64,000 nucleotides of DNA from Paraspadella gotoi (Eukaryota > Animalia > Chaetognatha). Position numbers and translations under genes: made by a program. The DNA lies in contig CM119265.1 of NCBI GenBank assembly GCA_051294375.1, positions 8,254,772 to 8,318,771 of the forward strand, in the 5' to 3' direction. Within the stretch, counting starts at the first letter, position 1, and each line of letters begins with the position of its first letter. The notes under the pieces are model-generated. The model had not been told where the DNA came from, ran no database searches, and saw only the letters and a list, made by a program, of their open reading frames with translations. Shown piece after piece: positions 905 to 57,031 of the stretch.

Positions 905-1966
905 CTAACCGATCAACTTTTTATTTTCCTCGGCTGAGTCGACTTCAACTCTTTTCGTCAAAACGAGAGGAGTCGAGGAATTTGAATGAGACTCTGAAAT
1001 CGACTCGTCCGACGAACTCTTCGGGGATTCGCCGTCGTAATTGCCGTCCACATTCTCGTCAATCTTTTGCTTGGGAGAATTGAGAGAAAGTCGAGAACGA
1101 TCTTTAGACACAGAACGACGGTGCTCGATGTCCGACCTAAGATGACAAACCAATTTTTTAAAGAAGCTAAATGGATCGATTAATTTCCCTTTTCATCAAT
1201 GAGGTAGCACCTTTGGGTCTTTCCCTTAAAGGATACTCTGAAGTGGCGGAGTTTCATGTGATTCCTTTTGTGTTGAAGCGAAGAGAAGGAGACGTGACAT
1301 TTTTTGCATTCGCGCAAAGGACCTCGCATTCGTCTTCCAACGCCGAATTCGATGGCCAGCTGTTAATGTAATGGTTATTAGTTAATTCAAGTAAGAGGAG
1401 CCAGTGAATCCTCTTTTCTTATCATATAATAAATTCTCTGGGAAACTAGAGAGCTTTGGTGACCGACCTGCTTGCCCTGGTGATCGGTGTTGAAATGTTG
1501 TTTGGCTCGGGAAAAATTCTCGCACCATAAACCGCAGAGCTTGCAGTGACAGGTATTGTTTTGGGAACCTTGCCCAGGGTGAAACTTTTTTTTATGCTCA
1601 TAGAGCTTACTCCTACATGTAAATTTAAGAAATAAAATGTCTATAATTTTTTTGCGCACCGCGGAGGTATGTGCATTGTGCAATTGAGCAATATTACCTG
1701 GAAGTAAATTTTTGATCGCATATTGGACAGAGCCATGACTGGATAGAGTATGCAGGATGTTCACGTCTGTGACAATCTCGAGCCTGGTAAGTCTTAAAGG
1801 TCTGTCCACAGACCATGCACGGCCAATCGATTTTCAAGTGAACCGCGTAGTTGTGGCTGGCGCGCTTTTGTGAGTTAATGAAGGTTTCTCCGCAAACTTC
1901 GCAGGGCCACGTTTTTTCTCCGGATTTGGGTTCAGACTGGATTGACAGAGAAAGAATGCGCGACCT
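905..1966 (-). CDS. Multi-C2H2 zinc-finger protein (3' exons; 5' end uncertain, possible further exon near 2880-2970)
   Basis: Minus-strand translation gives WPCEVCGETFINSQKRASHNYAVH, WPCMVCGQTFKTYQARDCHRREH, LCPICDQKF and CKLCGLWCENFSRAKQHFNTDH, then a Ser/acidic tail ending at 905. Confidence 0.7.
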
Positions 1967-2248
1967 CTTTAGAAGAAATTCAAATTTTATAAGTGTGCTC
2001 TATAAAAGTCTACCATAATGTTTACAATTAATTTTATGTTATTCAAAGCAATACAGAACATTGTCCTATAATCCATTTTTGGCTTATTTTTACATTCGCC
2101 GACCGGGATTTTTCGCTTCTTATGAGCGACGTATATAGAAATCTCTAGAAAAAAACTTTTTTACAAATTCCTAACCACCCCTGATCCCTAACCAACCTTA
2201 ACCCAATTGCAAACCGTTTAAAAAATATAACACAAGCATTGTTTTTCT

Positions 2249-2516
2249 TTGTTTGTTTACGTACAAATTTGATTAAGAAAACTAAATTTCGGATATTTTT
2301 CAGCTTCAATGTAAACCTTCATCAACGCAAAAACGAATTGATTTGTAAAAAATATTTTCACAGACTTTGTGTCAAGTTTGAAGAGTGAGAAAAAGAAAGA
2401 GTCAGTAAAATATTTGTTTCACAAATCAATTCGTTTTTGCGCTGATGAAGGCTTACATTGAAACTGAAACATGTCCCAAATTTGATTCTTTATAAAACTC
2501 GTACGTAAACAAACAA
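2249..2516. mobile_element. Small foldback (inverted-repeat) element with a degenerate minimal hammerhead motif in each arm
   Basis: Arms ~2249-2360 and ~2405-2516 are reverse complements (ends TTGTTTGTTTACGTAC / GTACGTAAACAAACAA). The right arm has CTGATGA-AGGCTT-ACATTG-AAACT-GAAA-CATG-TC. Confidence 0.7.
2442..2475 (+). ncRNA. Minimal type I hammerhead ribozyme-like motif (degenerate)
   Basis: Core CUGAUGA...GAAA, palindromic CAUG loop and a GUC cleavage triplet; stem II is imperfect and stem I weak. Confidence 0.5.
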
Positions 2517-3713
2517 TTCATTTTCTTCCTGAAACATAAAAATAGCAATTAAAATAAATTTAAAACAATTATTATATATTATAAGATTATAAAATTTGTA
2601 TTACTGAATAAAAAATAATGTATATCATTGCGCAAAGTGAGACTCGACGCTAGAGGGAAAGCAAAATTAAATGGATTAAAAAAGCACCGACCGGTGGTAC
2701 CTAAGGAATCCTTAGTAAGGATGGTTGCGGACATCGAATAGTAAAGTTACCCACATTTTTCTAGACGCTCTGACTTGCCAATTTGTTGACAATAATTTTT
2801 TTTTTACTTTTTAGGACTACGACAAAACTCGTTTAATGTTTATTGTGATTACCTTATTTGGTGTTGGGTTTGAGGTTACCTTCTTCTTTGGCTTATCACT
2901 GTGAAACTGTAAAACATGTTGACGACGGTTCTCAGAGGTCGAAAACGTTTTTTGCAAACTTTGCACCTTTTAAACAAATATGTTGAGAGATAATAAATAC
3001 ATGTACGTAAAAATAAATAAATACAAGGTAGTTTTATATTATGAAATTGGTACAACCAATATGTATATACCAACTTATGAAATTGGTACAACAAATATAA
3101 AAATTATATTATATTATGTACCACACCATAGGCATAGCATGTCGAAAGTCAAAAAGCGAAAAAGCAAAAACTTACTTGAATAGATCGCGAAAAGGCATAG
3201 TTAAAGTCTGTAACTAAACCGAAGGGAAAAAAAATCTTGCGAACTGGTCGGGAGAGATTTTATCAACTTTATCTTTTCAGTTAGAGAGTTAAAGGAAAAC
3301 AAAACATTCGACAATTATTTTTTTCGCCGTTGAGTGAGGGAATGGAAAAAGAAACGAAAGGCACTCGAGTTGAAGTTAATGTGGATGAGACTTGGCTCGG
3401 TTCACAGTCGCATTTTTTGGCCAAAAAATTTGTGAATAAAAGCTCACGAAGACCTCACCCCTCGGGAAATCAAATTGGGTGGAGATAAGATTCACGTTCG
3501 GGTTTTAGGGGATCGACATCGACCAATCGGGATCTCTCAAAAATGATCGGCTATTTGTGTTCCGTTTCGGTGAAACCACGTGACGGTTTCTGGAGACAGT
3601 TGGACACAGGTGCTGCATGATCCATTGTCCTCTTTAGTATAGGTTATTTCGTGTCAAGCGAGCTCAACGCGAGACTCTAACATTTCTTTTTTCAGAACAT
3701 TTTTTAAAAAAAG

Positions 3714-5557: not shown

Positions 5558-7168
5558 TCACGCGTCGACTACGAGGCCGACGCCAAAGTCGTTGGGACCT
5601 GCGGCGACGTTCATGGCGTTGACTTGACCAGAGACGTTGAGGGAGACGCCGTCGCGGAGGCGCGTGCTGTAGGCGACGGAGAGAAGGGAGGAGTTGTCGA
5701 TTTTCACTGCCGGGGTACAGAAAAGGTGAGGGGTGGTGGAGATATATTGAAATGGAGGTTTAACAAAAGGGGAGGTTCGTGCAAAAATAAAGAAAGCCAA
5801 TAGTTGTCAACTCCCTTACCCGCGACGGACGAGATTCCGCTGAGTGCGACTTTATGTGAGAGGGCGAGGGAAGGTTTGTCGCCGGGTGTCGCGTTGAGCT
5901 CGACGCCCAGTTCCGCGTCGGACGACAATTTTTGGTAAACCTGAGCGTTGACCGCCTTGTCCGCCGCCAGCGTCGTCAAAAGCTATATAAACATAACGCA
6001 GAGCACAACGAATTAAACAATCCAAAGGTTTTTCATTTCTTCTATTGTTCTCTTTCCACCTGAAAGTCAGGCCCTCGGAATCCCAGAGCGCAAGAGCCTT
6101 GCAGCGAGGAGGGTTTTCTGGGGTCGACGCTGGATAGAAAACCGGCGACCCACCCGTTACGGTTGATANNNNNNNNNNNNNNNNNNNNNNNNNACCGCCG
6201 AGGCCTCGACCGACGAGAGGTTGTCAGACACGGCGACACCCACGGTTGCCAGGTCGTTGCTAAAGTGAATAGGGAAAATTTCTAGATAAAAAACATTCAC
6301 AGAACGAAATTCACAATTTATACTGTGCCACAAAACAAAAGTACCAAACCTGAAGCTGGACTTGAGCCCCAAGTTGAGTTTGCCCGTGTCGGGGGCGAAG
6401 ACCGACGTAAGTCCGACGTTGAGACCGGAAACGACGAAGTCCTTGACCGACAGGGATTCTTCCAAGACGCGGGCGCTGGTGTAACGCATCGTGAAATCCG
6501 CTCCCTAGATGCAAAAAGGCGAACACAGTCTAAACTACAGCAAATTCCTTGGAGTATCCATTTTTTTTTTCAATCCGACGAACCCAAAAGACATGAGAGG
6601 ATTCCAAGGCGCTGGTGACGCTCTTGGGACCCGTTTGCATGGACAGATTCCCTCCGAATTTGGAGCCGGTTTTCGTGGCAGTCGTGAAGTCGAGAGAAAA
6701 GGCGCCAGCGTTGAAGGGGGCGTGCAGCACGGCGTGGGAAGGAGACGCCAAATCTGAAAAATAAGAAGCGACGTTTTTTAATATTACGCAGTGAGTTAAG
6801 GATGAAAAGCCGTACCTTCGAAGGCCGGGATCGGGACGGACTTGTCTTTCAGTTCGGTGGACGAGCGGGACTTGCATCCGCAACACTGAGGGGGAAACAC
6901 GAAAGGATCTCAACCTAAAGAGTCAGTCGACTCACACCAACCCAGCTTTTTCTACTCGGTTCTTACTTCTTTTACAGCGTTGTCGTTGGTGTTGGCGGCG
7001 GCCGTCTCGACAACGTCCGTCAAAACTAATAGAAGAAAAATTCCTCTTTGGCTTCCGAGTCTCATCTTTTGAAAATCCCCTTCTCCACTTACCCGCAGCG
7101 GAGGGAAGTTCCGGGAGGGCGGCTTCCAATACCGCCGCTGCCTCCTTTGCCTTGAAAGCATCCCCCAT
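5558..7168 (-). CDS. VDAC: Divergent voltage-dependent anion channel (porin) with a ~70-aa N-terminal extension
   Basis: Spliced translation PIPAFEDLASPSHAVLHAPFNAGAFSLDFTTATKTG...VTSALESSHVFW aligns by eye to the VDAC N-terminus. It also has VDAC-like LNVGLTSVFAPDTGK, INRNGWVAG, AQVYQKLS and a C-terminal beta-signal FGVGLVVDA*. Confidence 0.85.
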
Positions 7169-8629: not shown

Positions 8630-10270
8630 TCACACGATTCTGACGTCCTGCACGCTGGCCTTGACGAGATTGAACAACGTCTTGTCGTCGCGCCGATATC
8701 GGCAAAGCACGACCGCCTTGAGCTGTTCGAGAAAGACGTCGAGGTCGTCCTCGAGACCACGGTGATCCAAGTCGGTCACGTGACGCAACGCGTCAACGCG
8801 TTTGAGCCTGGCCTGGATCTGCGCGCGCACGTGGTCGTAGTACCGCTTCAAATAAGAGTTCTTCTCAGCGCGTTCGCGGTTTTCCTTGAGCGACTTGGTC
8901 ACCTCCGCTTCCATGGTTTTAAGCTTTGACTGCGGGGGTAGTATGGGAGATAATATGATCCGACATGATTACTGATTGGATAAACAATTTCAAACATGTC
9001 AAATATATCCTAAATTTTTCCAGCGACGAACTTGAAAATCCGAGTAGCCAGACTCGAGCTCTTTATTTTCTTTGGTGAGCCTTTCAATCTCCTGGTCCAA
9101 TTTTTGAAGTTCGCCGTCCGTACTGAGTAAATCGATCCCGGCGCAAGCCTTTTTGTGAATTTCCTGTTTTGCAATATTAAAAGGCGAATTATTAAACTTT
9201 GGTAACTGTGATAAGGCCTTTTTTTCTTGTAACCAGAAATTCTTGGACCTCACCTGCATGACCTCTGAGGTAAGTTTAGCGCGCTTCATGACATTGGTGG
9301 CCCTCGGACACCCGGACAGAGAGCGGTGCGACGAGTAAGTTCCGACCGCGTTACCGCTTCCATCGCAACCTGGCGTCGGGCACGTCTCCCATCTAGTTTA
9401 AAATAAAATTATTATGTTTAAATTGTAAATATTAAATTTTTAAATAAGATTAAAATGCTGCTCATAAAACTAAAACCTCGTTCCCACCTGGCAGTGTTGC
9501 TGGTGAGCCCGAGAACCTCACAAGCTTTGGCCGAACAGTCAGAATGAACAACCGAGGGTGGTCGGAAAGAGGCCTGCAAAAAAAGAAAATATCAAAGAAA
9601 TGGAATCCCTATCCGCCAATTTTGACCGAAAGTCATCTCCACTCACCGTCGGGCCGTCTCCCTTGAGATAAACTATCCTCGGTGCCACCGGTTGAGACGA
9701 TAACAATTCAAATTGCGTCGACACGCCTTTCGAGGAAAGTTTCGTGGAGCAATCGGTGGTTGCGGCAGTTGTGTCGGATGCCTCGGGTGCGGCAGAAAGG
9801 GAGATGTTTTCCGTCGATGCGGATTCCAAATCGTCACATGACGACGGGTTAGCCGGTTCGTCGAAGAGCTCGCCAGAGTTTATCGGACCGGAAGAAGAGG
9901 CGGAGGAGTTGGCGTCGATCAAGGTGGAAGACGAGGAAGATAAAATCCCGGCGTCGCTTATGAGAGTTTGGTTGGATCGGAGCGGCGGCGCAGAGTCGGC
10001 GGAAGGAAATTGAGCGGAGAAGACGGAAAGCGGCGCGGGAGGAGTCGAGCCTCGAGAGGATCGTCCCGGCGCTGACGACGGCGTCGGGGATGAACGACGC
10101 TCGTAAGTTAAAGGCCGTTTGGAGCCAGCGCGAAAGTGAAGAGGTGGATCCGGCGTTGGAAGGACAGGAGTCGGTGACGCCGAAAGAGACGAAGCGACGT
10201 CCTTCATATCGGCGACGTTGTTGTTTACCGAAGCGATGGAGATCATGACGGGATCCGCGCCTGACGCCAT
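8630..10270 (-). CDS. MYT1/ST18-like C2HC zinc-finger protein with C-terminal coiled coil
   Basis: The exon at ~9250-9390 encodes [28 protein letters not shown]. The C-terminus [16 protein letters not shown]...[12 protein letters not shown]...[15 protein letters not shown] resembles the MYT1 family tail; the N-terminus is Ser/Pro-rich. Confidence 0.75.
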
Positions 10271-10936: not shown

Positions 10937-11306
10937 TTAATCGTCATCGTCATCCGGCACGAAAATATCGTTCTCCTCGAGAAAGGCGGCGCCTTCTCGA
11001 GCGACCGTGGCGCCGATGTAGATGCCGGGAATGGCGCAACCAAGGACTTTGACCACTCCCAGGCGGTTCACTTCCGGTTTCGGCAGAAACGCGCCTAAAA
11101 AAAAAGTTGAAGGGAATGGGAACCCGTTTCATTTTCCTCACACGAAACATTTCGGATGTTTTTCGTTTTCGTAGTTTTTTACCAGTTTCCGTGGTGACTG
11201 CCGTCCTCGCCGTTTGAACTCCGGTCGATTTACTCAGCTCGAGCAACGCTTTGTCGCCTCCCTTTTTCAGCGCCAAAAGCGACATCTGCCTCAGGCTGGC
11301 CGCCAT
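10937..11306 (-). CDS. SMDT1: Essential MCU regulator (EMRE), 2 exons
   Basis: Mitochondrial presequence MAASLRQMSLLALKK...TTETG spliced to AFLPKPEVNRLGVVKVLGCAIPGIYIGATVAREGAAFLEENDIFVPDDDDD* (TM helix with GxxxG plus poly-Asp tail). The second exon frame is not in the ORF track. Confidence 0.92.
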
Positions 11307-13498: not shown

Positions 13499-15719
13499 TC
13501 AGGAAACCCAGTTGCGTTCAAACTCTTCCATTTCGTCTTCGCACAAATCCCCGTCTCCAAAAGACGCCGGAGAGTCGTAATCGTCGTCTTCGAAGTCCGA
13601 TTCAAAGTCGTCATAACGCGCAACCATGTTTTGGTCCTGACGAAGGGAGAAAATGGAGCCATCGAACCATAAGAATTTCCATGGTTTCGTGGCGTCGGAA
13701 TCGACGGCATGAGAGATCTCTGAACCTCCGGCTTTAATATCGAGCGGGGCCTCGCGGCGGCGTTTGTTTATCGGTACCGGTTCGGATCCGATGCCAAACC
13801 AACGCCATACGAACTTGTCAGTCACACCATAATCGCCGCTAATATCGAGATAATTCAAGGCGGGGCACCCGGCCACGACCTTAATGAGTTTATCATCGTC
13901 GATGCCCGGCGTCGCCGTCAAAACCAGCGTCTCCAGCTCGGGATAAACCACGGGAAAATAAAAATCATCCGGTAACCGTATGTAACCGAGATTGAGATAT
14001 TGCAATCTCGGAAGTTTGCCAATGCAACTCTCGGAAAAAAAATGAGTGTTATTGAGTGAATAACAGCACGATAGGTTGAGACGCTTTAGCATGACGCAGT
14101 GGTCGAGGATTTGGCGCAGGATCTGTGCGTCGACGCAACGGTTCTGGGAGAGGTCCAGGTCATTTAATTCGGTATCCGCGTTGAAGAGGGGCGCCAACGA
14201 AACTTCCGGTATCATGTTCATCTGGCTGAGTTTTAGGACGCGGAGGTGGCAGAGCCTCGACAGGTGTAAAAAACCGTCGACGCTTAGGCCAACGCAGTTG
14301 GACAGGTTGACCACTTTAAGATCAGGACACTTCTCGACGATTTTCTTGACGCTGTCATCCTTGAGTTTGTTACATCGCTCGAGATTAAGTTCGACTAATT
14401 TTTCGTTCGCCAAATGAAAAAAGTTGCCGACGATTCTAGAACAGCCGCGCAGGTCGAGAGACTCGAGCTCGCGGCAATCCTTGAGGAAGTACCAGGCCGC
14501 CTTTTCCTGTAAATCGAGACCATCCCTAATAATCAGACGCTTCAAGCCTTTGCATCCACCGCTTATGTGACGAATGGCGTCAAGAGTCATCTGAGCACCA
14601 CTGGGAGAAAATAAAAAACCTAAAATACTAAGTCGTGAGTAAAGAAAACTGAAATCAAACTAGGATTCACCTTATATCCAACTTCTCTAACTTGGGACAC
14701 AAGTCTCCGATGGCCTTTAATGCGTGATGTCTCAATCCGCTCCTCGAGATGTCGAGATGCCGCAGACCCGTCTTGTTCGTCTTCCAACCTCTCATCCTTT
14801 TGAGAAGGCCGACGAAGGTGAAATCGTTGATAGCAGATCCGAAAGAGTAAAAAGCTGGGAAATCGGGCAAAACGAAGGAAGTAAGCAAGGACCAAGAGTC
14901 TCGCGAGAGGCGTCGCCAGCGTTGGCAGACTCGCTCGAGACGAACTCGTTCGCGAAGGTCGAGCAGAGAAAAGACGCGAAGGAGGACGAGGTCTGGCAAG
15001 AAGTCCCCGGGAGACGGAGCAGAGTCTTCGCCGTCGTCGGAATCCTCCAATTTAAGACCCTCCAATGACGAACCCTCCGCCACGTCGTCAGCGATTCCCT
15101 CACTCAACGCCTTTATCTTATCAAAACCACGCGCAATCTCGACGCGCGCCTGACGCCCGCGTAAGACGAGGTCCTCGTCGGCTGCCGCAAGCGCCGCCTT
15201 CACGCCGGCTTCGTCCTCGAAAACGACGAAGCCGAAGCCTTTGGAGAGGCAGCGTCGCCCGAAAACGCCGGGTTTGCGGATTATCTGGCCACTTTTGACG
15301 CGACCGAATTTGGAGAAGAATTCCTCGAGTTCTTCCTCGTTGACGTCGTAGTCGAGGCGAGAAACGTAAACGCGATTCTCTTTACCGCCTCGGAGTCGGT
15401 TGATGCCGACGTCACGGCCGTCGCTGCGGAAGCGGCGTGGGTAGGCCCCGAGGGAACGGTTTCGACCACCGCGGGCTCCACCGCGTGGGGGCCGCGCGTC
15501 TCCCCATGAGTCCTGGGCGTCCGGAACGGCATCTGGGGGGGCATCCTTGGTGGCGTCGGGAGCAACACCAGCGTCAAGAGCAGCGTCGGTAGCAACCCCG
15601 GTGTCAGGAGCTGCGTCTGGAGCAATATGGGGTGAAATTTTGGGGCCGCTATCATTATTTTCAGCTCCCTCGGCGAAACACAACGCGGCTCCACCCAGCG
15701 CTCCTGATTGACAACTCAT
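13499..15719 (-). CDS. RRM + F-box + leucine-rich-repeat protein (2 exons)
   Basis: RGG segment, RNP2 (VYVSRL), RNP1 (KGFGFVVF), F-box (LPDLVLLRVFSLLDLRERVRLERVCQRW), about 10 cysteine-containing LRRs and an acidic tail; intron ~14602-14670. Confidence 0.9.
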
Positions 15720-36182: not shown

Positions 36183-36308
36183 TCACTGATTGCCGTCCAC
36201 GATCTGGACTTCGGCTTTCTTCCGGTTATTCTCGGCGTCGTTGACGGCGGCGTTTCCACCACCAGATCGACCACAGAAGATTGTGTAGCACTGACGGTTA
36301 TCCGCCAT
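36183..36308 (-). CDS. Candidate 41-aa small ORF (unknown)
   Basis: GC/CpG-rich island. AAAC-ATG-G start ~24 nt after the acceptor TTCCCAG, which follows a long pyrimidine tract; MADNRQCYTIFCGRSGGGNAAVNDAENNRKKAEVQIVDGNQ*. Confidence 0.4.
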   Translation of the reverse strand: MADNRQCYTIFCGRSGGGNAAVNDAENNRKKAEVQIVDGNQ

Positions 36309-36813: not shown

Positions 36814-39157
<2,344 letters not shown>

Positions 39158-41161: not shown

Positions 41162-42547
41162 TCATTCCGACATTCGTAAACTCTTCGTCTTTCTCGGTTC
41201 TTCCGTCGCTTCTTCCCTTTTCTTGAGGTCCGATGGAGGCTCATGTTCATAGGAGGAGATCTTTTCCCGGTAACTATCCCATTGATCTGTCTCTATCGCT
41301 GTTCTCACTCGAGCGAAGAATTTTGTGTAGTGGTAAAGGTTGTGGGCGGCGAGAAGAACTGTGCCCAACAGTTCGGAGGCGTCGAGGAGATGGTGGACGT
41401 AGGCCCGAGTGTGGGATCGGCAGGTGTAACATTCGCAGTTTTCGAGAAGAGCGGAGAAGTCGGCCGCAAAGGCAGGAGCTTTAAGGTCGACTTCAATATA
41501 TTTGTTCCCAGAGGTTTTCTCCGACGAAGAGCCGACTTCTTGAAAGTTTGCCTCTAAAGCCTCGAGCTCACAGTCGAACACCAAAGCTCCACCCCGCTCG
41601 GCGACGACGATGGGGAAGGAAGAGTCAAAGAGATCGATGCCAGCGTCTACTGCGTCAACAATAAAGCCTGGTGTCGCTGGCCGAGGGGCGAGCCGCGGAA
41701 GACCCTCAGGAAGATGAGGAACGACGAGCGAAAGGGCGGTCACGGCGTTATTGACGTCGTCAGTAGTCTCCGCCACCCGAACGTCGATCGGTGGACGCCA
41801 GCCGTCAAAAACGAAACCGGAAAGAGAGGGAATCTTTTCGAGGAGGTTTTTTAAGTACGTACAGGTCCCTGTCTCTCCCAACCCGACCAATACCGTGCCC
41901 CACCATCGTTCTCCACTTGCACCATCTCTATTTGTCAGAGCGGCGATCCTGTCGGCAAATCCTAGTGATCGTTTCTTCGCTTTCTCCAATCTCTTCCTCG
42001 TTGTTTCCTCGTCGTGGAAAGCGACGTCGGCGTCAGCTATGACCTGCGAGGCGTCGCAACCCGCTGCCCGCGCAAGGGCGACCGCTTCGTCGGGCATCAC
42101 GTCCGCCTTTCCGGCGAAAGTCCAAGCGGCGACTGATTTTATTGTGTTGTGTCCGGGAGGATGGGCGACAGCGGGGTCGTTCTGAAGAAGAACGGAGAGA
42201 GTGTCGAACGAAGATCTAGAACCGTTGTAGCCTACAACGCCGTCACCAGAGGCTTCCAAGGTGGCTCGACGAAGACGCACGTCGCCCAACGTAAAAATCA
42301 TGGGGACGACAGGTTTGCTCTGATTCATGTTGTCTTGATATACGGACTGAGATAATATGTCATGGGTAAGATGAGGCACGCAGCAGCCAGCAGTGTAAAG
42401 AAAGCAAGCGGGAGTCGGCAGAACCACATCCTTATTGGGTTCTTTGACCTTCAAGAGTCCGAGACGTCGACCTTTGACGGTTTTCGTGATCGAAAATTCC
42501 ATCACGGAAAAGTTGCTTCGAGAAGATGCAAAAAAGCTTCCCTTCAT
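41162..42547 (-). CDS. QTRT2: Queuine tRNA-ribosyltransferase accessory subunit (single exon; start 42547 or 42502)
   Basis: RLGLL...TPACFLYTAGCCVPHLTHD, GIDLFDSSFP, zinc site CECYTCRSHTRAYVHHLLDASELLGTVLLAAHN. Confidence 0.92.
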   Translation of the reverse strand: MKGSFFASSRSNFSVMEFSITKTVKGRRLGLLKVKEPNKDVVLPTPACFLYTAGCCVPHLTHDILSQSVYQDNMNQSKPVVPMIFTLGDVRLRRATLEASGDGVVGYNGSRSSFDTLSVLLQNDPAVAHPPGHNTIKSVAAWTFAGKADVMPDEAVALARAAGCDASQVIADADVAFHDEETTRKRLEKAKKRSLGFADRIAALTNRDGASGERWWGTVLVGLGETGTCTYLKNLLEKIPSLSGFVFDGWRPPIDVRVAETTDDVNNAVTALSLVVPHLPEGLPRLAPRPATPGFIVDAVDAGIDLFDSSFPIVVAERGGALVFDCELEALEANFQEVGSSSEKTSGNKYIEVDLKAPAFAADFSALLENCECYTCRSHTRAYVHHLLDASELLGTVLLAAHNLYHYTKFFARVRTAIETDQWDSYREKISSYEHEPPSDLKKREEATEEPRKTKSLRMSE

Positions 42548-42663: not shown

Positions 42664-44028
42664 TTAATCTCTCTTAGATGCCAAGTCCATTTCGAGTTTG
42701 TAGGAAAAAGGATTAGTGCCAGCTCGACTATGCTTTTTGAGCAGCAAGCCGCAATCATCGATAACGAAGTCGTAAAAGAGAAGCGGGAGTGGCGCCGTCG
42801 AAAAGTGCCAAAGAGCGTGAGAATCTACCGCCCAAAAGATTGGAGGAAAATCGAGAGTCTCGAGTAGGGCGGAGGCGGAGAACCAGATAGTGGCGATGAG
42901 AGCTTTCCAGAAGTGAGTGTAGCCTGCAACCAAGGGAAAGAATTCGCTTTTATAAATTTCTTCATGTGACCGCGCTAATTCTATTCTATTCTGCAAACCT
43001 CACCCTTAACGATCTGCAGAACGGTGTACGAGGTCCAGACGAGCACGAAGACGCCGGCAAAAAAGATGTTGACTTTCATATTGTACCCGTAGTCGAAGTC
43101 GACGAAAGACATCGTGAGACAGTGATGGAGAAAGATGCCGCCAAGGACAAAGCCGATTGAGGCCGGAAGTCGAATCGGGGATTCGCCGACGATGCGAACG
43201 AGACTACAGAACAGTTGCACCAGGATTAAGCTAAAAAGGAGAAATCGAAGAATATTAAAACTTTTGAAAAAAATTATATTCTAAAAAAAACTAACAAGAA
43301 TCAGAGCAAAGTCTGAGACCTAAACGCGGAAAAATAGTCGAATCTCTCCGTCCACGGAGTGTCTCTGACGTGAAAAACGAAAGACCAGACCCAAGCGTTG
43401 ATGCAGACGACTGAAAAAAGCCGCCAAAGGTTGAAAAAGGGCGTGGTGGACGGAACGATGCGAGTGAAGCGCCGCAGCATCAGAAAATGGCAAACGCCGT
43501 TGAGGACGGAAGCAATCGCAGAAGCCGGCTCCTGAAAAAAATGTTCTTGTATACAGAGTATTTATCAAGAGATTCAAGACTGCTTAAAAATCATCCCTTA
43601 TTGCATCAGTGACCTCAAGTGGGTTTTACCTGCACGCCAATGACACGGACAAAGGGCCATTTGCCATCAAATTGGGGCACAGCTTCTCCTTGGGACGCCA
43701 ACACGTCGACGGCTTCCCACATGCAGTCGTAGCCGCATTCGGCGCGACAATCCCAGCCGAGCAAAACCAGCGGCCATGGTTGCGAGGAGAGAAAGTTATT
43801 TTTGGATGCGGGGGTCGAACAGCGAGCATCTAAGCAAATCTAATAAGCAATACTATATTAGTATATTATTATATTAGTCGATAATTGTTTTAAATTTAAC
43901 GAAAAATGTGACAACGTCCATACTTGTAAGCATTTTCTGTATGCAAGGGTGCGGTCGCCGTAGGATCCCCCACAAGAGGAAATGAAAGACCAAAGAGCGA
44001 GAATCCACAAGGTCCAACTTAATATCAT
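42664..44028 (-). CDS. PGAP3: Post-GPI attachment to proteins factor 3 (Per1 family)
   Basis: Signal peptide plus SYGDRTLAYRKC, WDCRAECGYDCMW, QFDGKWPF, EPASAIASVLNG, INAWVWSFVFHVRDTPWTERFDYF, FDYGYNMKVN, LETLDFPPIFWAVDSHALWH. Confidence 0.95.
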
Positions 44029-44280: not shown

Positions 44281-45114
44281 CTACATTTCGTTAATACCTT
44301 TTATATTGAGAACCATATCAGAACGGTACGTCATCATGGGATAGTTTTCGGTCTCCCCTAGGCCCTCGTCCTCCCAATCCATCACATCGTCCTCGGCGGC
44401 GAGCTCTCTCCTCTGCTCCGCCACCTTCTTTTCCGCCTCCTCGACCTCCCGCCGCAGAGCCAAGATATCCTCCGTCGATCCGCCCTTCAAAGCGCGCCCC
44501 GTCTTCTTGGCCGCTTTCTTCATCTTCTCCCGTTTCTCCTCGGCGACGCCGGCCTCGGCGACGAGCCTCTCCGCTTCGAGCAGAATCTTCTCCGTCTCCG
44601 CCTTTTCCGCGACGGCCTCGTCGATGATGCTGCGCAAATCTCGTTCCTCTGAGGATTCGCCTTGGGCCAGGGCGTAGTATGAGGCGTCATTGTCATTAGT
44701 CGTTTGCTTAGATTCGTCCATATCCTTATAAGAATAATTATAAGGGGTCAACTGGATGACAGTCGGATAGACGTAGACATCAAAAAGGCCTAAAAGCAAG
44801 AATATAAAAGAAATAAATTTTACCGTGACTGAGGCCGAGAGTGGTGCCACTGTCACGTCGATGTTCCTCCAGGATTCGCTGCACCAAAGTTTTTCACAAA
44901 TTTTAAACCCGGCTAACTTTCCGATGTCCGCCCCGATGAGCTTTTTGATGTGGCCCACCATTTCCGAGGAGACTTGTTCCGACTCCTCGAAAGACTTGAA
45001 AAGAGTTTTGGTAGAAGTCGACTGGTTATCCACGGGCTGACGTTCGAGATTCGTCAATTCGCCCAACTCTTGGCGAACTTGGGTCAGTTTTTTACCCAGC
45101 AACTTCGACGTCAT
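44281..45114 (-). CDS. Uncharacterised charged coiled-coil protein (exon structure ambiguous; possibly two cistrons)
   Basis: 277-aa open frame with two exon-like GC-rich blocks separated by AT-rich intron-like sequence; the C-terminal block is E/K/A-rich. Confidence 0.55.
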   Translation of the reverse strand: MTSKLLGKKLTQVRQELGELTNLERQPVDNQSTSTKTLFKSFEESEQVSSEMVGHIKKLIGADIGKLAGFKICEKLWCSESWRNIDVTVAPLSASVTVKFISFIFLLLGLFDVYVYPTVIQLTPYNYSYKDMDESKQTTNDNDASYYALAQGESSEERDLRSIIDEAVAEKAETEKILLEAERLVAEAGVAEEKREKMKKAAKKTGRALKGGSTEDILALRREVEEAEKKVAEQRRELAAEDDVMDWEDEGLGETENYPMMTYRSDMVLNIKGINEM

Positions 45115-45644: not shown

Positions 45645-47270
45645 TCAGTGGCCGGTTTTTTTTCGGTGAAACCACATGGTTTGGCGACTGTTGAACGCCA
45701 TGTTACAGACGTTGCAGTGGAGGACTTCGCGGAAGTGGATTCTCTTCAGATGTTCGCGGCAGGTGTCCTTGCGGGTGAAAGTCTTTTTGCATAAAGAGCA
45801 GGTGAAGGGTCTGCGGTTGTGTGTCGGTTTTTGACCTGAAAATATACTCGGAAGAATTACTACCAAATTTGCAACACAATTAGTAGTTTGTATATTTTAA
45901 GCGATACCTCTCCGATTCTCCGATTCTCCTTTACCCTTGGCTTTTTGAGTCTTAGACCCTTCAGCCTCTTTTTTCTCCCCATTGAGGTTTTTAGTGACGA
46001 ACTTTTCCTCGTCACCCTCGTTGACCCTGGTCGCCGAAACCGCAGCCGCGGCCTTGGCTTTGTTGCCGGTCGAGGCGAATGGACCGGGTACGGAGCGACC
46101 CGTCGACCGATAGTGTCCATCGCCTTCGGAATCGTCGGGAGGCGACCTGGTCGGTGGTCCTGACGGCGGCTGTTCTTTGTTTCCCCGCGGCGACGGGGGA
46201 GTAAAGTGGGACATCATGGCGAGAAACGAATGAGTGATATTCTCGTAGTAATCTTCCTTGGGACCTGATATGGCCGAGGAAGATGATGCCGAAGCATCGG
46301 AGACCCTGCAGTGCGGCGGATTCGGCGGCGTGGCGACGTGCCTGGACTTTTCCGAGGGCGTCAAGTCCAGCGCTGTCCCTTCAGCCGGCCCTTCGAGCGG
46401 ACCGACGGTATCAGCGGACGGAGGAGTCGAGGCAGACCCTGGCGGCGGCGGCGGCGGCGGCGTTTCGACAATCCCGTCGATGAGATTGTCGACTTTGTCG
46501 TCGTCGGATATCAAGTTGGATTTCGGTTCTGAGTTAAGGTTGAACGGATTGGAGGAAGACCCTGATTGGAGCCGAGGCGAGGAAGCACACGGCGACGGAA
46601 GACGGAAGACGGTACCGTCCGGCAAAGACGAGAGAGGGAGAGAGGAAATCATCGACGCCGAAAACGGCGAAGGAAGCACGTAGGCGAAGGCGCCGTCAGA
46701 GACGGAGTCATCGCCTACGTTATCGGGCGACGGGCTCGCGGTCGGACGATCGAAGACTAAGTTAAGCGGATTTCGATCGAAGTCGATGCGAGAGAACTTC
46801 GGTTTTAAGCGCGTCTTGTGCTTGGTCGGCGCCTGGCGCTTTCGACGTGAAGGGAGCGGAGCGGTGTCGCGGACGAGCGGCGTTTCTATTTTATAATCGA
46901 TAGGGGCGTCGAATTTGAAGTCGGCCTCGGAAGCGACACCAAAATCGTCTTCGACCTCGCGTCGCGAAACGGAGAACGCTTCTTCCTCGGGTCGCTCCGA
47001 ATGAACATCCCTCGAAAACCCCGAAGAAGCGTCTTCGTCGTGGTGATCTAGGGGCGCGGCGAACTCCACGTCATTCTCGCGTGGATGGAGACCGTCTCGC
47101 AGAAACGCCGAGCGAAGCGTCGTTCCGCCGGTCCATATACGACCGCCGTCACCCTCGCCAGAGGCGTCGACCAGGACGAAGACGTCGGCGCTGACAATGT
47201 CGGCGAGTTTCATCGCTGACTCCAACAGGAACGACGTCAGGCGCGACTCCAACTTCCCTTGAGTCTTCAT
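45645..47270 (-). CDS. Protein with a long disordered region and two C-terminal C2H2 zinc fingers (2 exons)
   Basis: Long exon 47270-~45908 spliced to GQKPTHNRRPFTCSLCKKTFTRKDTCREHLKRIH...HCNVCNMAFNSRQTMWFHRKKTGH*. Confidence 0.85.
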
Positions 47271-48059: not shown

Positions 48060-49769
48060 TCACTCGACACCATGAGCAAATATCATTACTAGGCCCGGCT
48101 CCAAAATCATATCGGGACCCATATGTCGGTTGTCACAAGCAGTAATGACGACGGCTTGTTTTCCGGGGATACGCTTTGGGACATAGTTTTCGTAATTTCG
48201 ACGGTTGAGTTGCCGCGTCTCCAGAGTATTCAGCCGCGACGGCCATTTCCGCTCATGGGCGTTTTCCATCAGTTCCATAGCGATCGTCGAAGGGCATCCG
48301 CTGTCGAGAAGGGCGCGCTTCACGACCGCTTGAAGCGTCGTGTCGGGCGTCGATATCATTCCGCCCCAACGAGTCACTCTTGAAAATAGGATGAGGATTT
48401 AAGGGAAAGATTAGGAAGGTCACAAGGAAAAGTGTTTCAATCCAGACACTCACCGCGCCGGACGAAGCGACGCCACCCAATCCATAAGATCTTGGTTCAT
48501 GGAAGAACTCAACGAGTTCGCTTCGGCCGCAGCGGAAGTTGCGGCGGCGGCGCCGGCACCGGCCTGGTTCGACAGTTGCATGATTAGCGCCGCGTCGGAG
48601 GCGTTGTGACCCGAGGCCATCGTAGCGATGGTCATGATAACCTCGTTATCGTCGCTCGTACTGGGAAATTAAGAAATATAAATTAAACTTTTCTAAGTTG
48701 ACAAGATAACAACAAGAGAAACCTGGTGTTGTGAGGAGACATGGGCGATCTGATGGAGAGAGGAGACGATTCCGTGTTCATGGGCATCACCGCCGAAGAA
48801 GAAGATCGCGACTCGAAACTGAAGAAAGGAAAAGCGATGAGTCAGACCTCGTTGAAGACGAAGCAGTCAACGTCAATCGCCTTCATACAGAGTGGGAAGA
48901 GTCTGTCCGCGGGGAAGGAGATTTTGAACGGTATCGCGAATGATGTCGAGGTTGCGTCTCATGTCCGAATTGAGGAGTTTTTGTTCTCCGAGTTCTTGCT
49001 ACGGAGATGACAAAGTAAGAACGATTTTAACGTACCGTACATTACTGCATAGCAAAGTTAGTTGTAAAGAACCTGCATCATCGATATTCTATTTTGTTGT
49101 TGCTGCAAGAGAAGCCTCATTTCTCTCACACAGTTGTGCTCCTTAAGCTCGTCTTTCGGAATCACGATGCCGCAACCCTGTTCAGAAAATTAGTTACTTT
49201 TAGATTGCTCAGTTAATCTAAAATGACGAGGCGATTATAACGCTTGAATAGTTAACTGACTTGGGGGCAGGGAACTGGCCGCTTCGGGTTAAACTCGCAC
49301 TCTGAGACGTGAATTTCCAAACGATCGAGCTTCACAGTTTGCTTGGTGAAAAAAAAGTAACCAAAATAACTACACGTGTAGAAAAATAGGATGTAAATTT
49401 ACTTTACTGACCTGACAACCGTATTTAAAATTCTCGCAAGAAATATCCAATCGAGAAAGCAGATTCCGTAAAATTCTCGGGACTGGCTTTAAGTGACATA
49501 TGACTAGACGTTGACGGTCTACGGGACAAGTGGCCTGTCGAGTAAGCCATTCTGAGAAAAACAAAAATAAAACCTTTTCTAAAAAAAAAAAAAAAAACTA
49601 AAAAAAACCATCAGCGATCGCGCATCGTACAACAACCTTGTATACAGCCCATGCAAAACGCGTGTTCGCACTCTGGCGCCTGTAGCGGATCTTCCAACAC
49701 CCCGCTACAGATTGGACACAAAAGTTCTTCGTCCACTTCGCCCAAAAAACGGGCAACGTCATACCCCAT
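48060..49769 (-). CDS. RNF41: E3 ubiquitin ligase NRDP1
   Basis: MGYDVARFLGEVDEELLCPICSGVLEDPLQAPECEHAFC, TCPVDR, C-terminal USP8-interacting domain VTRWGGMISTPD...NAHERKWP...EPGLVMIFAHGVE*. Confidence 0.96.
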
Positions 49770-50410: not shown

Positions 50411-50690
50411 TATATTGGTTGTACCAATTTCATAGCAAAAATCTGGACCTATGACAAACTTTGATACTCAAAAAATCAAATTTCATACAGGAAGACAAAG
50501 TTTTATAAATAACAAACGACTTAATATATAGATTTTTTAAAAAATATTAGTGATTCGACGCACATATTCAACAATAATAATTACAAGCGATAGCGACGAT
50601 AAAAAGAACTTGACAAACAGAATAACAAAATCAATTCGAAGCCTAATAAAGACAACTCGATGCTATGGGAATCTACACTCCCAAAAGCAC

Positions 50691-51429
<739 letters not shown>

Positions 51430-51616
51430 TTAAAAATGGTGTGCGAAGCCCATTTACAGTACTGGTGGATACTAGCTGTAAATATGCGTCCAAACATTTC
51501 ATTTTTTAAGGAAATACCCAATAGAAAAAAGGCGATGATAGTCGAAAGGAATAATTCATTGACTAGAAGAATTCAGAGCGTGTGCTCTTTCCGATTCTCG
51601 CTCACAAGCCGAGATT

Positions 51617-54112
51617 TTATGCACTGGCGATCAGCGAAGTTTGCTGACTGAGAAGCGCCAGAGAATGTTCCGTTGAAAGCTTGTGAATCCCGAACTCGGC
51701 GAGAGAGTCGCGAGCGCCCTCCCCGCCGTCAGAACCTAACAGACCACCGGCGTTGGAGGCGTTGCGGAACGAAACTATCGTATCTTTCAAAAGACGCGCC
51801 GACCCCAGCGGCAGCGTCAAAAGGGTGAAGGCCTCCTTGACCTCCTTAAAGTAGTTTTCTGGTTTGGCCGTGAATTCGGCGAAGACGGGAAACAAGTTGC
51901 GCTCCATGTCGTACTTGAGCTGCGCCGCGCCGCCTTCGCTAAAATGATTGGGGAGGATGACTTCCTCATAAATGTACTTGTTCAAGTCCCTAGCGATACG
52001 CTGCCAGATTAGGGTCATGTTGGGGGGAGACAGATAGAGGCCGAGTATGTGAAATCGTGATTTGAGGATGAGAAGCATTTCGCACGCGGAAGACGAGAGG
52101 TTTGGGGAGACCCAGTCGGAAGTTGGAGGAATCTGCAACCACTTTTCCTTTTTGTAGGCTTGAGACCGGGATTTGACTTCGATCATGACCGCATAGACGA
52201 TGTCTTTAAGCATCGTCTTACGAAGATGATCGTATGTTTGTATGATTTTGTCAAAAATGCTCTTGGCCGTCCCGTCAGAGGGATCCGCTGCAGTAGGATC
52301 AAAGAGTAGTTTGTCTTTCAAAATTTCGCCCGACAAATCGCTGACTTTCAAGCGTTCCGAGAAAAGGGACAACGCAGAAAAAGTGTAGCTTTTGCTAGTT
52401 TCCAAGGCTGACACACTTACGTCAGTAACAGTGGCCGTGTTAGTCGTCATTTCTACCGGAACGACGCTGGTATCGGCCACCATAGAGGCGTACTGTTCAT
52501 TGTACCAGCTCAGTTGAATGTAGTGGGGATGCTCGCGCCAGTCTTGCAAAACGGTGAGAACGTAGTGAATTCCGTTGAGAACTGAAGTAAACTTGATGCC
52601 CATTGGGTTTCCCTTTTCCCCGCCCTTCACTTGCGTCATTCGGAGGTGAAAATCTTCCAAGAGATTAAGTTGCAGCTCAAGAAAGTGAAGTTTCGGCAAA
52701 GGCCCAGGTAGCATGACGCTCCGCTCCTTGAGGACGTGAAGCTGAGTCACGAAACTCTCGGTGCATTCGGGAACTCGTAAACAGGTGCCGTCATCGCTCG
52801 CCGAGAAGAGGAGAGCGTCGGCCGACGCGTCCGTTAGCACAGTCTGTGGTGACTTCCAAGCGGAGGGCGACGCCAGCATCGAGTCTATTCGCTCCTGGGC
52901 GAATTTCTTCTCCACGGTGATCCATCGCTGAAAGGCTTTTTCCTCGCAGAGAATATGGAGGACAGAAGGAAATACGGAAGGATAGTCGTAACCTTCCACG
53001 AGGGAACGATGAAAGAAGAGCGCCTCGTTGACGGTGTGACAGAAGAGGGATTCGTCGTAGAGCAATTCCGGAATGTCGGACTGGAGCTTCTCCATCACCA
53101 TGAGCGACATGCCGCGGATAAACTCCGCTTTGGCTTTGATGCGAGTTCTGCTGATCCGATCAAAGGCCGGTTGTATTATCTCGTCGAAAGTGTTTGCGTG
53201 GACACTTAGCCAGGAGAGCGCTTGGCTAAAATACCATTCCGGTTTGCTCAGATTATTGGTCGGCCGGTCACCGAAAAAGTGAAATTTAAATCTTTTCTTA
53301 AGAGGATTCAGTACGAATTGCATGGGGAGCGAGAAGGGTTCCAACGAACAGCCGAAAACCGACAACTTGTGCAGCATCGTTTTCGGGAGGCCGCAAGACA
53401 CGCCGAAGGAAGCCGGTAGCTGTACGTTTAACAATTGCGACAAAACTGTTTCGAAACTCGCTCTGTTTGCTGGCGAAACGTTTGTAACCGTCTGACCGGG
53501 GTTAGACGGACCCTCCACCACCGGATAGCCAAGAATTTTTAAATTCTTTTCCAATACCTGCGCTAGTTTTTCTTTGATGATGTCGTACCAATACAGGACA
53601 GTATCTCTAGCAAAATTGTAGAGAAAATAACACGATGTCGAGGAGAGGTGTTGACTCAAATCGACGAGTTCGGAAAAGGCATCAACGCCCGAAGTCATCG
53701 ATCCGGCTAAGAGCGAAGTTTGAATACTCGCGCTGATTTCTTCCACCTTCATTATCCAATGTAAGTATGAGAGATATTTTTCGACGTGTTGAATTTCGCG
53801 CGTTCTACCCTGCAAGCTGGGAAGCAATGGCAAGCATTTTTCCAGGTGTTGCTCGGTTCGTTGGTGAAGATATTCGCATTGATTGATGAGTTCCGCAATA
53901 GATTTCTCCGCGTCTTTTCCTTCGCTAACGGCCGAATTGATTTTGGTTGGAATCTCCTGATTTGCCAATGCCACCTGCTTTGAAAGCTGATCTCTTTGTT
54001 TTTCGAGTTCCGCTCGCAGTTTCTCTATCTTGGAAAAGGATTTGAGATCTTTTCCCAAGTTTCGGTTTATAAAGGCAATGGCCTCTCCTTTGGCGGAAGA
54101 GTTGGACTCCAT
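51617..54112 (-). CDS. RINT1: RAD50-interacting protein 1 / Tip20 (single exon, 831 aa)
   Basis: PLKKRFKFHFFGDRPTNNLSKPEWYFSQ, LFCHTVNEALFF, HFSEGGAAQLKYDMERNLFPVF...KPENYFKEVKEA. Confidence 0.95.
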   Translation of the reverse strand: MESNSSAKGEAIAFINRNLGKDLKSFSKIEKLRAELEKQRDQLSKQVALANQEIPTKINSAVSEGKDAEKSIAELINQCEYLHQRTEQHLEKCLPLLPSLQGRTREIQHVEKYLSYLHWIMKVEEISASIQTSLLAGSMTSGVDAFSELVDLSQHLSSTSCYFLYNFARDTVLYWYDIIKEKLAQVLEKNLKILGYPVVEGPSNPGQTVTNVSPANRASFETVLSQLLNVQLPASFGVSCGLPKTMLHKLSVFGCSLEPFSLPMQFVLNPLKKRFKFHFFGDRPTNNLSKPEWYFSQALSWLSVHANTFDEIIQPAFDRISRTRIKAKAEFIRGMSLMVMEKLQSDIPELLYDESLFCHTVNEALFFHRSLVEGYDYPSVFPSVLHILCEEKAFQRWITVEKKFAQERIDSMLASPSAWKSPQTVLTDASADALLFSASDDGTCLRVPECTESFVTQLHVLKERSVMLPGPLPKLHFLELQLNLLEDFHLRMTQVKGGEKGNPMGIKFTSVLNGIHYVLTVLQDWREHPHYIQLSWYNEQYASMVADTSVVPVEMTTNTATVTDVSVSALETSKSYTFSALSLFSERLKVSDLSGEILKDKLLFDPTAADPSDGTAKSIFDKIIQTYDHLRKTMLKDIVYAVMIEVKSRSQAYKKEKWLQIPPTSDWVSPNLSSSACEMLLILKSRFHILGLYLSPPNMTLIWQRIARDLNKYIYEEVILPNHFSEGGAAQLKYDMERNLFPVFAEFTAKPENYFKEVKEAFTLLTLPLGSARLLKDTIVSFRNASNAGGLLGSDGGEGARDSLAEFGIHKLSTEHSLALLSQQTSLIASA

Positions 54113-54437
54113 GTTTGCATAGGCAATCTTTAAGAAGAGTTAACAAGAAAACGATAGCGAATTTAATTGATAAATACAATCAAATCACAGTAATCAAACG
54201 TCACGGTTCCCTAGACACCCCGTAAAAGAAAATAGAAATAACCCATTTTTGAAACACAAAAAAAAAATGAAAAATATAATGTTTTTACTACATCGTAGTG
54301 AAGTCGAAAAATTCTGACCCAAGAAAGTTTTTATTTTAATTGAATTTTAAAGTTTTGTTATAATTTTTCATACAAAATAATGAGAATAGCAGCACCATGA
54401 ACTGCTACGAATTGGATAAATTAACTAAGCATCGAGT

Positions 54438-57031
54438 TCAGGTGCCTGAATCTTGTGGTTCTAAAATATTCTCCTGCGTTTCAACGACAGTTTCTTGCGT
54501 AATCACTTCCGTTTGCGGCGTTTCAAAAATCGTCTCCTCCGTTCCATCATTTCCCTCTGAAGTTTCCCGCGTTACCGCTTCGTTTTCAAGAATTTGTTTC
54601 ACTTCTGTCTCTTGGTTTTCGTTTCGAACCAAGCCGCCCATTCCCTGTCCGCTCGCTTCCTCTTCGCTTCCAAAGAGCAAGGGGGAATCGTCAAACAAAT
54701 TCGGCGACACTGACTCTTGACTTTCACTCATCTCTTTCTCCACCCACTCCATCAGAAAAGATATCAAATTCTTCTTTGAAAATTTGCCGGTGTCGACGTC
54801 GGCGGAACCGAAGAGGCTGTCGACCTCGATAAAGAACTTGAACAAAGTGCCCACAGTGACGTCGTTTTCCGTCAAGAAAGAGTGCACCTTGTGCAGGTCG
54901 CGCGCAAGCTGGACGTCGCCAAAGGTGAAGTAGGCCAGGTCCCTCCCCGTCTCCGCGGCGGCCATCATCTGGATGAGACTCTTTAGGTAAGGATCGCCGC
55001 CAAAGGCTCCGCATCCCCAGTTTCCCGTGGCGACGGCGCTAAGGTTACTCGTGTCGACACCAGGGCGGACGAAAGCGGCATATGCCTTGTTCAACTCTCT
55101 CTTGACGCACTTAAGGGCGTATTGACGGGAGGACCAGTTAAATCGCAGGGCATCCATGGCGACGACTTCCGTGCTTAGTCGGCCCCAGGCGTCGCGTCGC
55201 GTTCGATCCTGAAAATTCCCGCGCCATTCAAAAGTGTCCGCATAACCGACGTAGTTGGAGTATCTTTCGGCGCCGATGACGATAAGGCACTCGTCACCGT
55301 CCAATTCCTCAGCCACCAACTGACTGACGATGAGTTCTGGACACATAAGGAACCTGATCTCCTCTTGGACGCAGCCTTCCCCGAGGGTCCCGCCCCCTAA
55401 GTACTTGTTGGCAAAGTCGACCTGGAGAAGACCGTCCGCGCCTTCGATCGTCCCTTCTGAATGGGGAAGAGTAAAAACAAATATTTGATTGAGTTAATTA
55501 AATTCCACATAAAGTCAAATGAAACCCACCGGCAGAAACATACAAACGCGGAATTCGCTTTTCACTCTCCTTCCACTCGGGCGTCTGCGTGACCTTCTGA
55601 CGAATGAAAGTGATAGTCCCCGTCGGCTCCCTATCCGTAACCCTCTCAAAGTAGTGAAGCAGGGCTCGAAGTTTCTCGCACTTTCCCCTGGAGTTCCATT
55701 CGTCGAAAAGTCGGTTAAAGTTGATCTCGGGAAACGAGGCGAACTCGCTGGCGCGGTGCTGCGAATTTCGGCGAGGAAAGGTGCAGAAGAAAGCGTTGGC
55801 AAGCAGCGCCGCGCACTGGCGCTGGGTGAGAGTTAGACGCCGATTTCCCGCCGCGTCGAGTTTGCGTAGGAGCGGCGGCGGGGTGGTACAGACCTCGGGA
55901 AGAGAGAGGCATAGGGCGATCATCTTGGGCATAAGGGTTTGGAAGAGGGAGCGAGACTCTTCCCGCGTCAGCCTCTCGCCAAAGTAAGAGTGAAGAGAGC
56001 GAAAATTCCAACGGTCTTTGTAATGTGGATTGTAGTAGAGGATAGCTTCTTTCAGATCAAAGCTGGAGCAAAAGTTGTCGCTGAGGGACCCGACGATAAG
56101 CTCCCAACGACTTTGAAGGCCCGACTTAGTGGGGCACAAGTTTTTAGGGGAGCACGGCATGCGGACATGGTATGAATCCCACTGGTCCGAGTATTTGGAG
56201 GGAAACGGACGCGGGGGTTCGCCTTAAAAGGGGAGGAAGATTTGGGCGAATAAAGCTTTCATTATGTGATGATGTAGGTAGAACTCTCCCTGTCTCTCTC
56301 TTTCTCTCTCTCTTTTCTGAGGTTTAAACATCCCTTTACCTTGACGTATATGTGGACGGAACATGATGAAATGAGATCGGGATTCGGGCCTTAATTCTCC
56401 CAAGGGCGCGCTGCATTCCGGTGTCCTTAGGAGATCCGTCAGCGGCGTTCCGAACGTCTTCTGCGACAGAGATCCCTGCCTTAAGGAAGGTAAACTAAGG
56501 AATAATTCATACGCCCAGAGGTTAAGCATGAGCGAGCCGTCGGCACCTGTTATCCGTTTCGATCTCGAAGTCGGCCATGTCTGGTCCAGAGGAGAAATCG
56601 GTCTCTACGACCTTCGGGCTTTCCAAAAGCGGAGGGGAATTGTCGTCGTCGTCTTCGTCTTCGCGCGGGGGCGACTGGGGCTCCTCGTCCGAATCGCACA
56701 TATCGATCACCACGTGCTTCGTCAACGAGTCCTTCGAAGGCCCGGCTATCTCAGCTTCCGGCGCCGTCGCGTTGGACGAACACGCGCCAGCGACGGATGG
56801 GGCCTCAAGAGTAACAGAGTCAAGGGCTTCCGGCGCGCCGTCCCTCGGTTTAGAGATGGGCGTCTTTGTAGCGTCGGCGTTCATGGCGACGCGAGAAAGA
56901 AAAAATTTTTCAAGATTTGTCTGTTTGAGGCAATTAGAAGCGAGAGGCCCGTGCTTGGACGAGTCGCGCTTGAAGCTCTTGGCTAGATTGGCGCGCTTCG
57001 TCTCCAAAGAGGGCGGCGACAACGTCTTCAT
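54438..57031 (-). CDS. PARG: Poly(ADP-ribose) glycohydrolase (start approximate)
   Basis: WDSYHVRMPCS, LLANAFFCTFPRRN, catalytic loop VDFANKYLGGGTLGEGCVQEEIRFLMCPEL, RELNKAY, VATGNWGCGAFGGD; PIP-like KQTNLEKFF in the N-terminus. Confidence 0.95.

Follow-up and report, generated by a model that had tools for sequence, protein, structure and literature searches.

The minus-strand gene run

The window analysed here is a 64,000-nucleotide stretch of the chaetognath Paraspadella gotoi (GenBank assembly GCA_051294375.1, contig CM119265.1, forward-strand positions 8,254,772 to 8,318,771), in which 21 genes and one doubtful 41-codon open reading frame (ORF) follow one another on the minus strand from 57,031 down to 906. 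The original prediction for this locus, a candidate very large trans-spliced operon or chain of operons, held that about 22 co-oriented genes lie here over 56 kb and that every non-nested gene between 0.9 and 57 kb is on the minus strand. Both statements are borne out by gene models and start codons assembled by hand from the full 64-kb window, the only plus-strand gene found inside the run being a nested astacin. The features, in the direction of transcription of the run and with stop-to-ATG spacers measured from the preceding gene, are as follows.

57258..57386, minus: predicted cis intron in the 5' untranslated region (UTR) before PARG, 129 nt; donor at the 82nd and acceptor at the 94th percentile of the window's splice sites
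54438..57031, minus: PARG, gene 1; 778-aa model, three introns; Pfam PARG_cat_N/C
51617..54112, minus: RINT1, intronless; spacer from PARG 325 bp
50691..51345, minus: NAA10-like N-acetyltransferase; spacer 271 bp
48060..49769, minus: RNF41-like RING/USP8-interacting protein; spacer 921 bp, with a repeat insertion
45645..47270, minus: ZnF_A, a C2H2 protein; spacer 789 bp; candidate site of an internal promoter (GC/CpG-rich sequence upstream, acceptor weak)
44281..45114, minus: ORF_B, 244 aa, without a family; spacer 530 bp
42664..44028, minus: PGAP3 (Per1 family); spacer 252 bp
41162..42547, minus: QTRT2-like TGT, intronless; spacer 116 bp
39325..41035, minus: NUBPL; spacer 126 bp
36814..39151, minus: NMNAT-like cytidylyltransferase; spacer 173 bp
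36183..36308, minus: doubtful 41-codon ORF; spacer 505 bp; behind the strongest unpaired acceptor (36345)
34006..35050, minus: TSR3-like; spacer 1132 bp
33398..33806, minus: stefin-type cystatin; spacer 199 bp; PDB sequence match
28991..33133, minus: DEAD-box helicase; spacer 264 bp
26893..28747, minus: SPOP-like MATH-BTB protein; spacer 243 bp
19125..26512, minus: KIF3B-like kinesin, 12 introns; spacer 380 bp
22469..23473, plus: astacin metalloprotease, antisense in KIF3B intron 8; 3' end not mapped
15926..17469, minus: LSM7-like; spacer 1655 bp, with a repeat copy
13499..15719, minus: RRM/F-box/LRR protein (FBXL); spacer 206 bp
10937..11306, minus: EMRE-like (Pfam DDDD); spacer 2192 bp, 1374 of it repeat-covered
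8630..10270, minus: MYT1-like zf-C2HC protein; spacer 666 bp; acceptor weak, may have a promoter of its own
5558..7168, minus: VDAC-like porin, cut by an N gap; spacer 1461 bp; PDB sequence match
906..3198, minus: ZnF_C, a C2H2 protein, 5' exons and start codon not settled; spacer about 2359 bp
60790..62703, plus: dual-specificity phosphatase, divergent from the run; 5' end not mapped

Twenty of the 22 minus-strand units are complete ORFs with GT/GC-AG introns, the incomplete models being those of the VDAC-like gene and of ZnF_C, the last gene. The PARG frame is open up to an in-frame upstream ATG at 57205, which may be the true start. In all, 71 introns were modelled (median 79 nt), two of them with GC donors, at 27765 (-) in SPOP and 25354 (-) in KIF3B. 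Family matches were obtained for 20 of the 22 units, 18 by Pfam (that of ZnF_C being sub-threshold against the curated cut-offs) and two by PDB sequence, and by these families the genes are non-paralogous and mostly housekeeping. Orthologue names such as QTRT2, KIF3B, LSM7, NAA10, and MYT1, some of them carried over from the original prediction, are putative and are consistent with the domains. Because the Pfam scan gave no family for ORF_B or for the 41-aa ORF at 36308, the count is given as 21 plus one doubtful. In the protein collection, from which four window proteins are missing, the exact sequence of the 41-aa ORF does not occur. The N-terminal 85 residues of ZnF_A (47270-47016, -) resemble MADS-box domains (atlas, 0.82, a lead only), its C2H2 pair being C-terminal.

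Pfam was also run over 88 ORF pieces, comprising 85 of the 86 off-gene ORFs at least 58 aa long and three pieces of the two units without a family, and only two plus-strand genes emerged, the nested astacin and the phosphatase. The latter, at about 60.8-62.7 kb, forms the upstream boundary of the run. On the downstream (3') side the run meets N gaps at the edge of the window, and its end lies beyond view. The idea that faulty assembly produced the run was rejected, since no frameshift interrupts the models and the N gaps are confined to the neighbourhoods of 0.3 and 6.2 kb. Beside those gaps, at 1-500 and 6016-6367, VDAC-like exons recur as inverted duplicates, which are likely an artefact of assembly.

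Spacers and splice signals

Eleven of the 21 spacers are short (116, 126, 173, 199, 206, 243, 252, 264, 271, 325, and 380 bp) and the other ten are longer (505, 530, 666, 789, 921, 1132, 1461, 1655, 2192, and 2359 bp), with a median of 380 bp over all 21. Every one of the 11 distances given in the original prediction agrees with measurement to within 5 bp. Its description of the spacers as tiny, however, is valid for about half of them, because ten of the 21 span 505-2,359 bp. The 11 short ones must contain both UTRs within 116-380 bp, which speaks for polycistronic transcription.

In a study of flatworm operons, an unpaired acceptor is described as a requirement for spliced-leader (SL) trans-splicing (PMC8629364). 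Acceptor and donor matrices were trained on the window's 71 cis introns with leave-one-out thresholds, and an acceptor was taken to pass if its score exceeded the 25th percentile of true acceptors and it lay no more than 100 nt upstream of the ATG. Such a site precedes 17 of 22 genes, versus 10.8 in 1000 dinucleotide shuffles (p = 0.002); the corresponding controls gave 3/22 after stop codons, 5/22 on the antisense strand, 6/22 in the next 100 nt upstream, and 27/85 in tiles of long introns. Narrowing the search to 80 nt gave 14/22 (p = 0.022) and widening it to 120 nt gave 18/22 (p < 0.001), both widths having been tried after the 100-nt test. The predicted unpaired AG sits 5-75 nt before the ATG of the downstream genes; such AGs are predicted at 54128, 51419 or 51374, 49801, 45153, 44077, 42555, 41041, 39197, 33874, 33167, 26559, and 15735. 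The best donor in the 11 short spacers is never above the 18th percentile of true donors. In eight of the 11 a good acceptor stands without a good donor, and three fail to show this. Unlike the genes behind short spacers, PARG, the first gene, has both a strong donor (57386) and a paired acceptor (57258) upstream. In the case of the astacin nested on the opposite strand, no acceptor precedes the ATG (score 0.6). Upstream ATGs are scarce in the last 60 nt before the start (4, versus 17 in the preceding 60 nt), which suggests that the 5' UTRs are short.

The strong donor at 57386, taken with downstream acceptors that have no local donors, would also suit a leader supplied in cis, whereby the 5'-UTR exon ending at 57387 would be spliced onto alternative downstream acceptors and each first-unit mRNA would carry the same genomic exon. 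Such a leader would have to bypass numerous strong splice sites lying within a span of up to 50 kb, a scale for which we know of no animal precedent, and it is very hard to credit. Given the layout and the splice-site statistics, membership of these genes in SL trans-spliced operons is likely. The polycistronic, trans-spliced part of the original prediction stands in particular for the tight clusters, where unpaired acceptors are enriched and strong donors are absent from the short spacers. Neither Rfam nor the published chaetognath SL2 core revealed an SL RNA gene in the window, and none is expected there.

Several points weigh against trans-splicing. All of the support comes from genomic sequence; models and start codons were built by hand; and the non-trans-spliced control consists of one gene (PARG). 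Acceptors are weak at QTRT2 (18th percentile), NUBPL (0th), and SPOP (1st), which include the two tightest spacers. The acceptor matrix is itself weak and T-rich, so that pyrimidine-rich start sites could mimic acceptors, and shuffles alone give about half of the genes a passing site. The scarcity of donors relative to shuffles is not significant (3 versus 6.2, p = 0.12), the branch-point motif is uninformative even in true introns (41/71 versus 38.7 shuffled), and AATAAA or ATTAAA is present in only four of the 11 short spacers; in QTRT2>NUBPL and LSM7>FBXL a poly(A) hexamer lies 45-92 nt before the acceptor. Likewise, Dimorphilus is described as having 66-bp median introns and short intergenic regions, yet without operons or leaders (PMC7854359).

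The example of Dimorphilus favours an ordinary compact genome, in which each gene would be transcribed from a small promoter that overlaps the 3' end of the preceding gene, with or without SL addition to monocistronic RNAs. The weak acceptors at three of the 11 short spacers similarly favour separate promoters, as does a CpG observed/expected ratio that is higher in short spacers (1.45) than in short introns (0.96). Separate promoters nevertheless leave unexplained both the excess of acceptors without donors and the presence of 21-22 genes on one strand. Were orientation independent, a 22-gene run would be expected 0.002-0.005 times per 10,000-20,000 genes, and gene orientations here are therefore not independent. 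Further, none of nine core-promoter motifs is enriched in the upstream regions; among shared upstream words, no 5-6-mer beats the null and one 7-mer in four genes is borderline (z 7.7 versus 7.6). A promoter for every gene is thus an unlikely account of the run, although a less improbable one than a leader supplied in cis.

Units, candidate internal starts, and repeats

The run is probably a chain of several SL operons, a known kind of system, and not one giant unit. Unrelated same-strand genes separated by short intercistronic distances, the arrangement by which SL operons are recognized, occur here in multi-gene units of 3, 5, 5, and 2 genes at a 400-bp cut-off, which divides the whole run into 11 units (3, 1, 1, 5, 1, 5, 2, 1, 1, 1, and 1 genes). 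A 550-bp cut-off yields nine units and a 1,000-bp cut-off six (11, 5, 2, 2, 1, and 1 genes), the first of these falling to ten genes if the doubtful 41-codon ORF is omitted. The core units would be PARG-RINT1-NAA10; ORF_B-PGAP3-QTRT2-NUBPL-NMNAT; TSR3-cystatin-DEAD-SPOP-KIF3B; and LSM7-FBXL. The first two of them may be joined as one 10-11 gene unit.

Co-transcription, a leader, and the positions of promoters are what we infer from this arrangement. Polycistronic pre-mRNAs would start from a promoter upstream of PARG, within the 57.4-60 kb divergent gap, and from a few further promoters inside the run, located in the longer spacers. Each upstream mRNA would then be freed by 3' cleavage and polyadenylation, and each downstream gene would be capped by way of an SL exon trans-spliced onto the unpaired AG before its ATG. 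ZnF_A and the MYT1-like gene are possible internal, promoter-bearing starts.

How far any one transcript would extend is the question on which a third alternative turns, namely a single trypanosome-like unit of 56 kb and 21-22 genes, driven by one promoter upstream of PARG, whose long spacers would be repeat-swollen intercistronic regions. Acceptors are indeed also found at genes behind long spacers (TSR3, LSM7, EMRE, and RNF41), and a donor above the 25th percentile lies within 250 nt upstream of a good acceptor only in the first and the last two genes. The original prediction placed transposable-element insertions in several of the larger gaps; a self-BLAST of the window reveals repeats in five of the ten longer spacers, and operon spacers in Macrostomum are likewise swollen by repeats (PMC8629364). 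In the other five, however, no repeat is visible in this self-comparison, and once repeats are subtracted the long spacers still measure 505-1733 bp. The sequence upstream of ZnF_A is CpG-rich (15 CpG in 200 nt), in the manner of that upstream of PARG, and its acceptor is weak. The acceptor of the MYT1-like gene is similarly weak, and developmental genes are described as depleted from chaetognath operons (PMC12460157). Moreover, chance alone would produce 5-39 runs of 9-11 co-oriented units per genome, so that a same-strand chain calls for no extra cause once there are operons. Because ten of the 21 spacers exceed 500 bp, two internal starts are possible, and 6-11 co-oriented units are expected by chance, one very large operon is not supported and appears quite improbable, more so than a promoter for every gene; it is the other half of the original prediction, a run of units, that fits best.

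Several repeats and other elements accompany the run. A 251-nt dispersed repeat carries a twister-P5-like ribozyme core at 4678-4720 (+), 18116-18158 (+), and 21729-21771 (-), with a worn copy near 4375 (+). The core scores 25.6-25.8 bits, under the Rfam gathering score of 37.6; both pseudoknot partner stretches are complementary by eye, with changes on both sides relative to the Rfam consensus, and plain folding of the repeat did not make a structure apparent (z -1.1 to 0.8). The repeat is in plus orientation in all four run spacers that hold it and in one downstream copy, and in minus orientation in three run introns, a weak hint of selection on its orientation; the copy within the plus-strand phosphatase gene is an exception. 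A second element, of 140 nt, is present in four copies, all on the sense strand (-): 29698-29562, 16439-16293, 16277-16134, and a split copy at 50511-50417 / 49890-49865. In DEAD intron 7, in LSM7 intron 1, and in the NAA10>RNF41 spacer its core lies 61-94 nt before an acceptor, the spacer copy being split by an insertion of roughly 545 nt. The element has no Rfam match and no C/D boxes.

Between FBXL and EMRE, at 13324-11299, lies a 2-kb repeat-rich stretch with long inverted arms. A 9-bp word that takes in the EMRE start codon is present on either side of it, and the ends of the stretch show no terminal inverted repeat. If this stretch is an insertion, the earlier FBXL>EMRE spacer would have been 175 bp long with a good acceptor (8.5). 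The divergent gap contains an inverted repeat at 58257-58657, perfect over 180 nt and with its arms 41 nt apart. Finally, NMNAT intron 3 (38381-37008, -) contains a GC-rich insert flanked by 103-nt direct repeats, with ORFs that lack a Pfam match, possibly a long-terminal-repeat-like element.

Relatives and known operon systems

For RINT1, the three nearest proteins are at 67-72%, followed by hemichordates, molluscs, an annelid, and echinoderms at 33-38%; PARG (nearest at 67%) and QTRT2 (nearest at 39%) follow the same pattern, and no row among the matches of these three is labelled as chaetognath. In single-gene trees built from 16 of 19 RINT1 matches and from 25 of 120 listed PARG matches (the latter by a quick method), window proteins and their nearest rows form a fully supported clade on a long stem, separate from the sampled molluscs, annelid, ambulacrarians, arthropods, vertebrates, coral, and sponge. 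The cluster of the PARG relative draws its members from Logan, ENA, and JGI/IMG, and two of these members stop at the intron position of the window's PARG; this points to an animal common in environmental samples. Scans of metagenome contigs with the RINT1 alignment and with a relative's PARG found no relative's locus for synteny. One sequencing run of uncertain kind contains 0.84 of the words sampled from 47300-57200; within 38400-44200 it covers only a repeat in NUBPL intron 1 (3 of 30 bins), and because a filter removes records this carries no weight in either direction. By comparison, Xenoturbella bocki has 43% GC and a median intron of 131 nt, as against 79 nt in the window, and operons and trans-splicing go unmentioned in the main text on its genome; it is a less likely match to the window.

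Long same-strand runs of unrelated genes that start from a divergent strand switch are the hallmark of kinetoplastid directional gene clusters, whose genes are almost intronless and all trans-spliced. The run described here differs in its 71 cis introns and in several long spacers that could hold promoters. Were it nonetheless a single unit, more than 20 unrelated genes would be served by one promoter in an animal, over twice the nine-gene maximum reported for chaetognath and flatworm operons. No animal operon of at least 20 genes is described in the titles and abstracts searched, a coverage that lies mostly outside the subscription literature.

Among animals, the C. elegans operons are reported to hold 2-8 genes (PMC8629364), those of Ciona up to seven with almost no intercistronic DNA (PMC7986045), and those of Oikopleura are functionally loose and not conserved (PMC11067885). 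The run resembles all three in its functionally loose, head-to-tail genes, which in those animals are resolved by SL trans-splicing (PMC7986045, PMC11067885). It differs from Oikopleura in that the PARG of the latter is just 48% identical to the window's and stands apart in the tree.

Closer parallels are provided by chaetognaths themselves and by a flatworm. In P. gotoi, about half of the genes are reported to be trans-spliced and 18% to lie in operons, defined at less than 250 bp between genes (PMC12460157), and the six gene names of the run that were searched for gave no match in three supplements of that paper. In Spadella cephaloptera, a bacterial artificial chromosome with several clustered same-orientation genes has been described, as has an operon of two genes in which three bases separate the poly(A) site from the acceptor (PMC2481426). 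The tight packing of same-orientation housekeeping genes is thus a likeness that the run shares with chaetognath SL operons (PMC12460157, PMC2481426). The longest P. gotoi operon reported (PMC12460157), by contrast, has nine genes of another set (ribosomal, ubiquitin, and proteasome), and for the run here a leader is predicted from genomic sequence. Macrostomum lignano operons have spacers near 100 bp, some of them widened by repeats as here, and with a 1-kb cut-off they reach nine genes, compared with 11 (ten without the doubtful ORF) in the first unit of this run at 1 kb, measured stop-to-ATG (PMC8629364). Any novelty may lie in length, at up to 10-11 genes in that first unit. If the run is a chain of operons, operons are densely packed in this neighbourhood and one unit may slightly exceed the nine genes that are the maximum in the literature consulted; the locus then offers a compact test both of the reach of polycistronic transcription in animals and of how repeat insertions lengthen or break operons.

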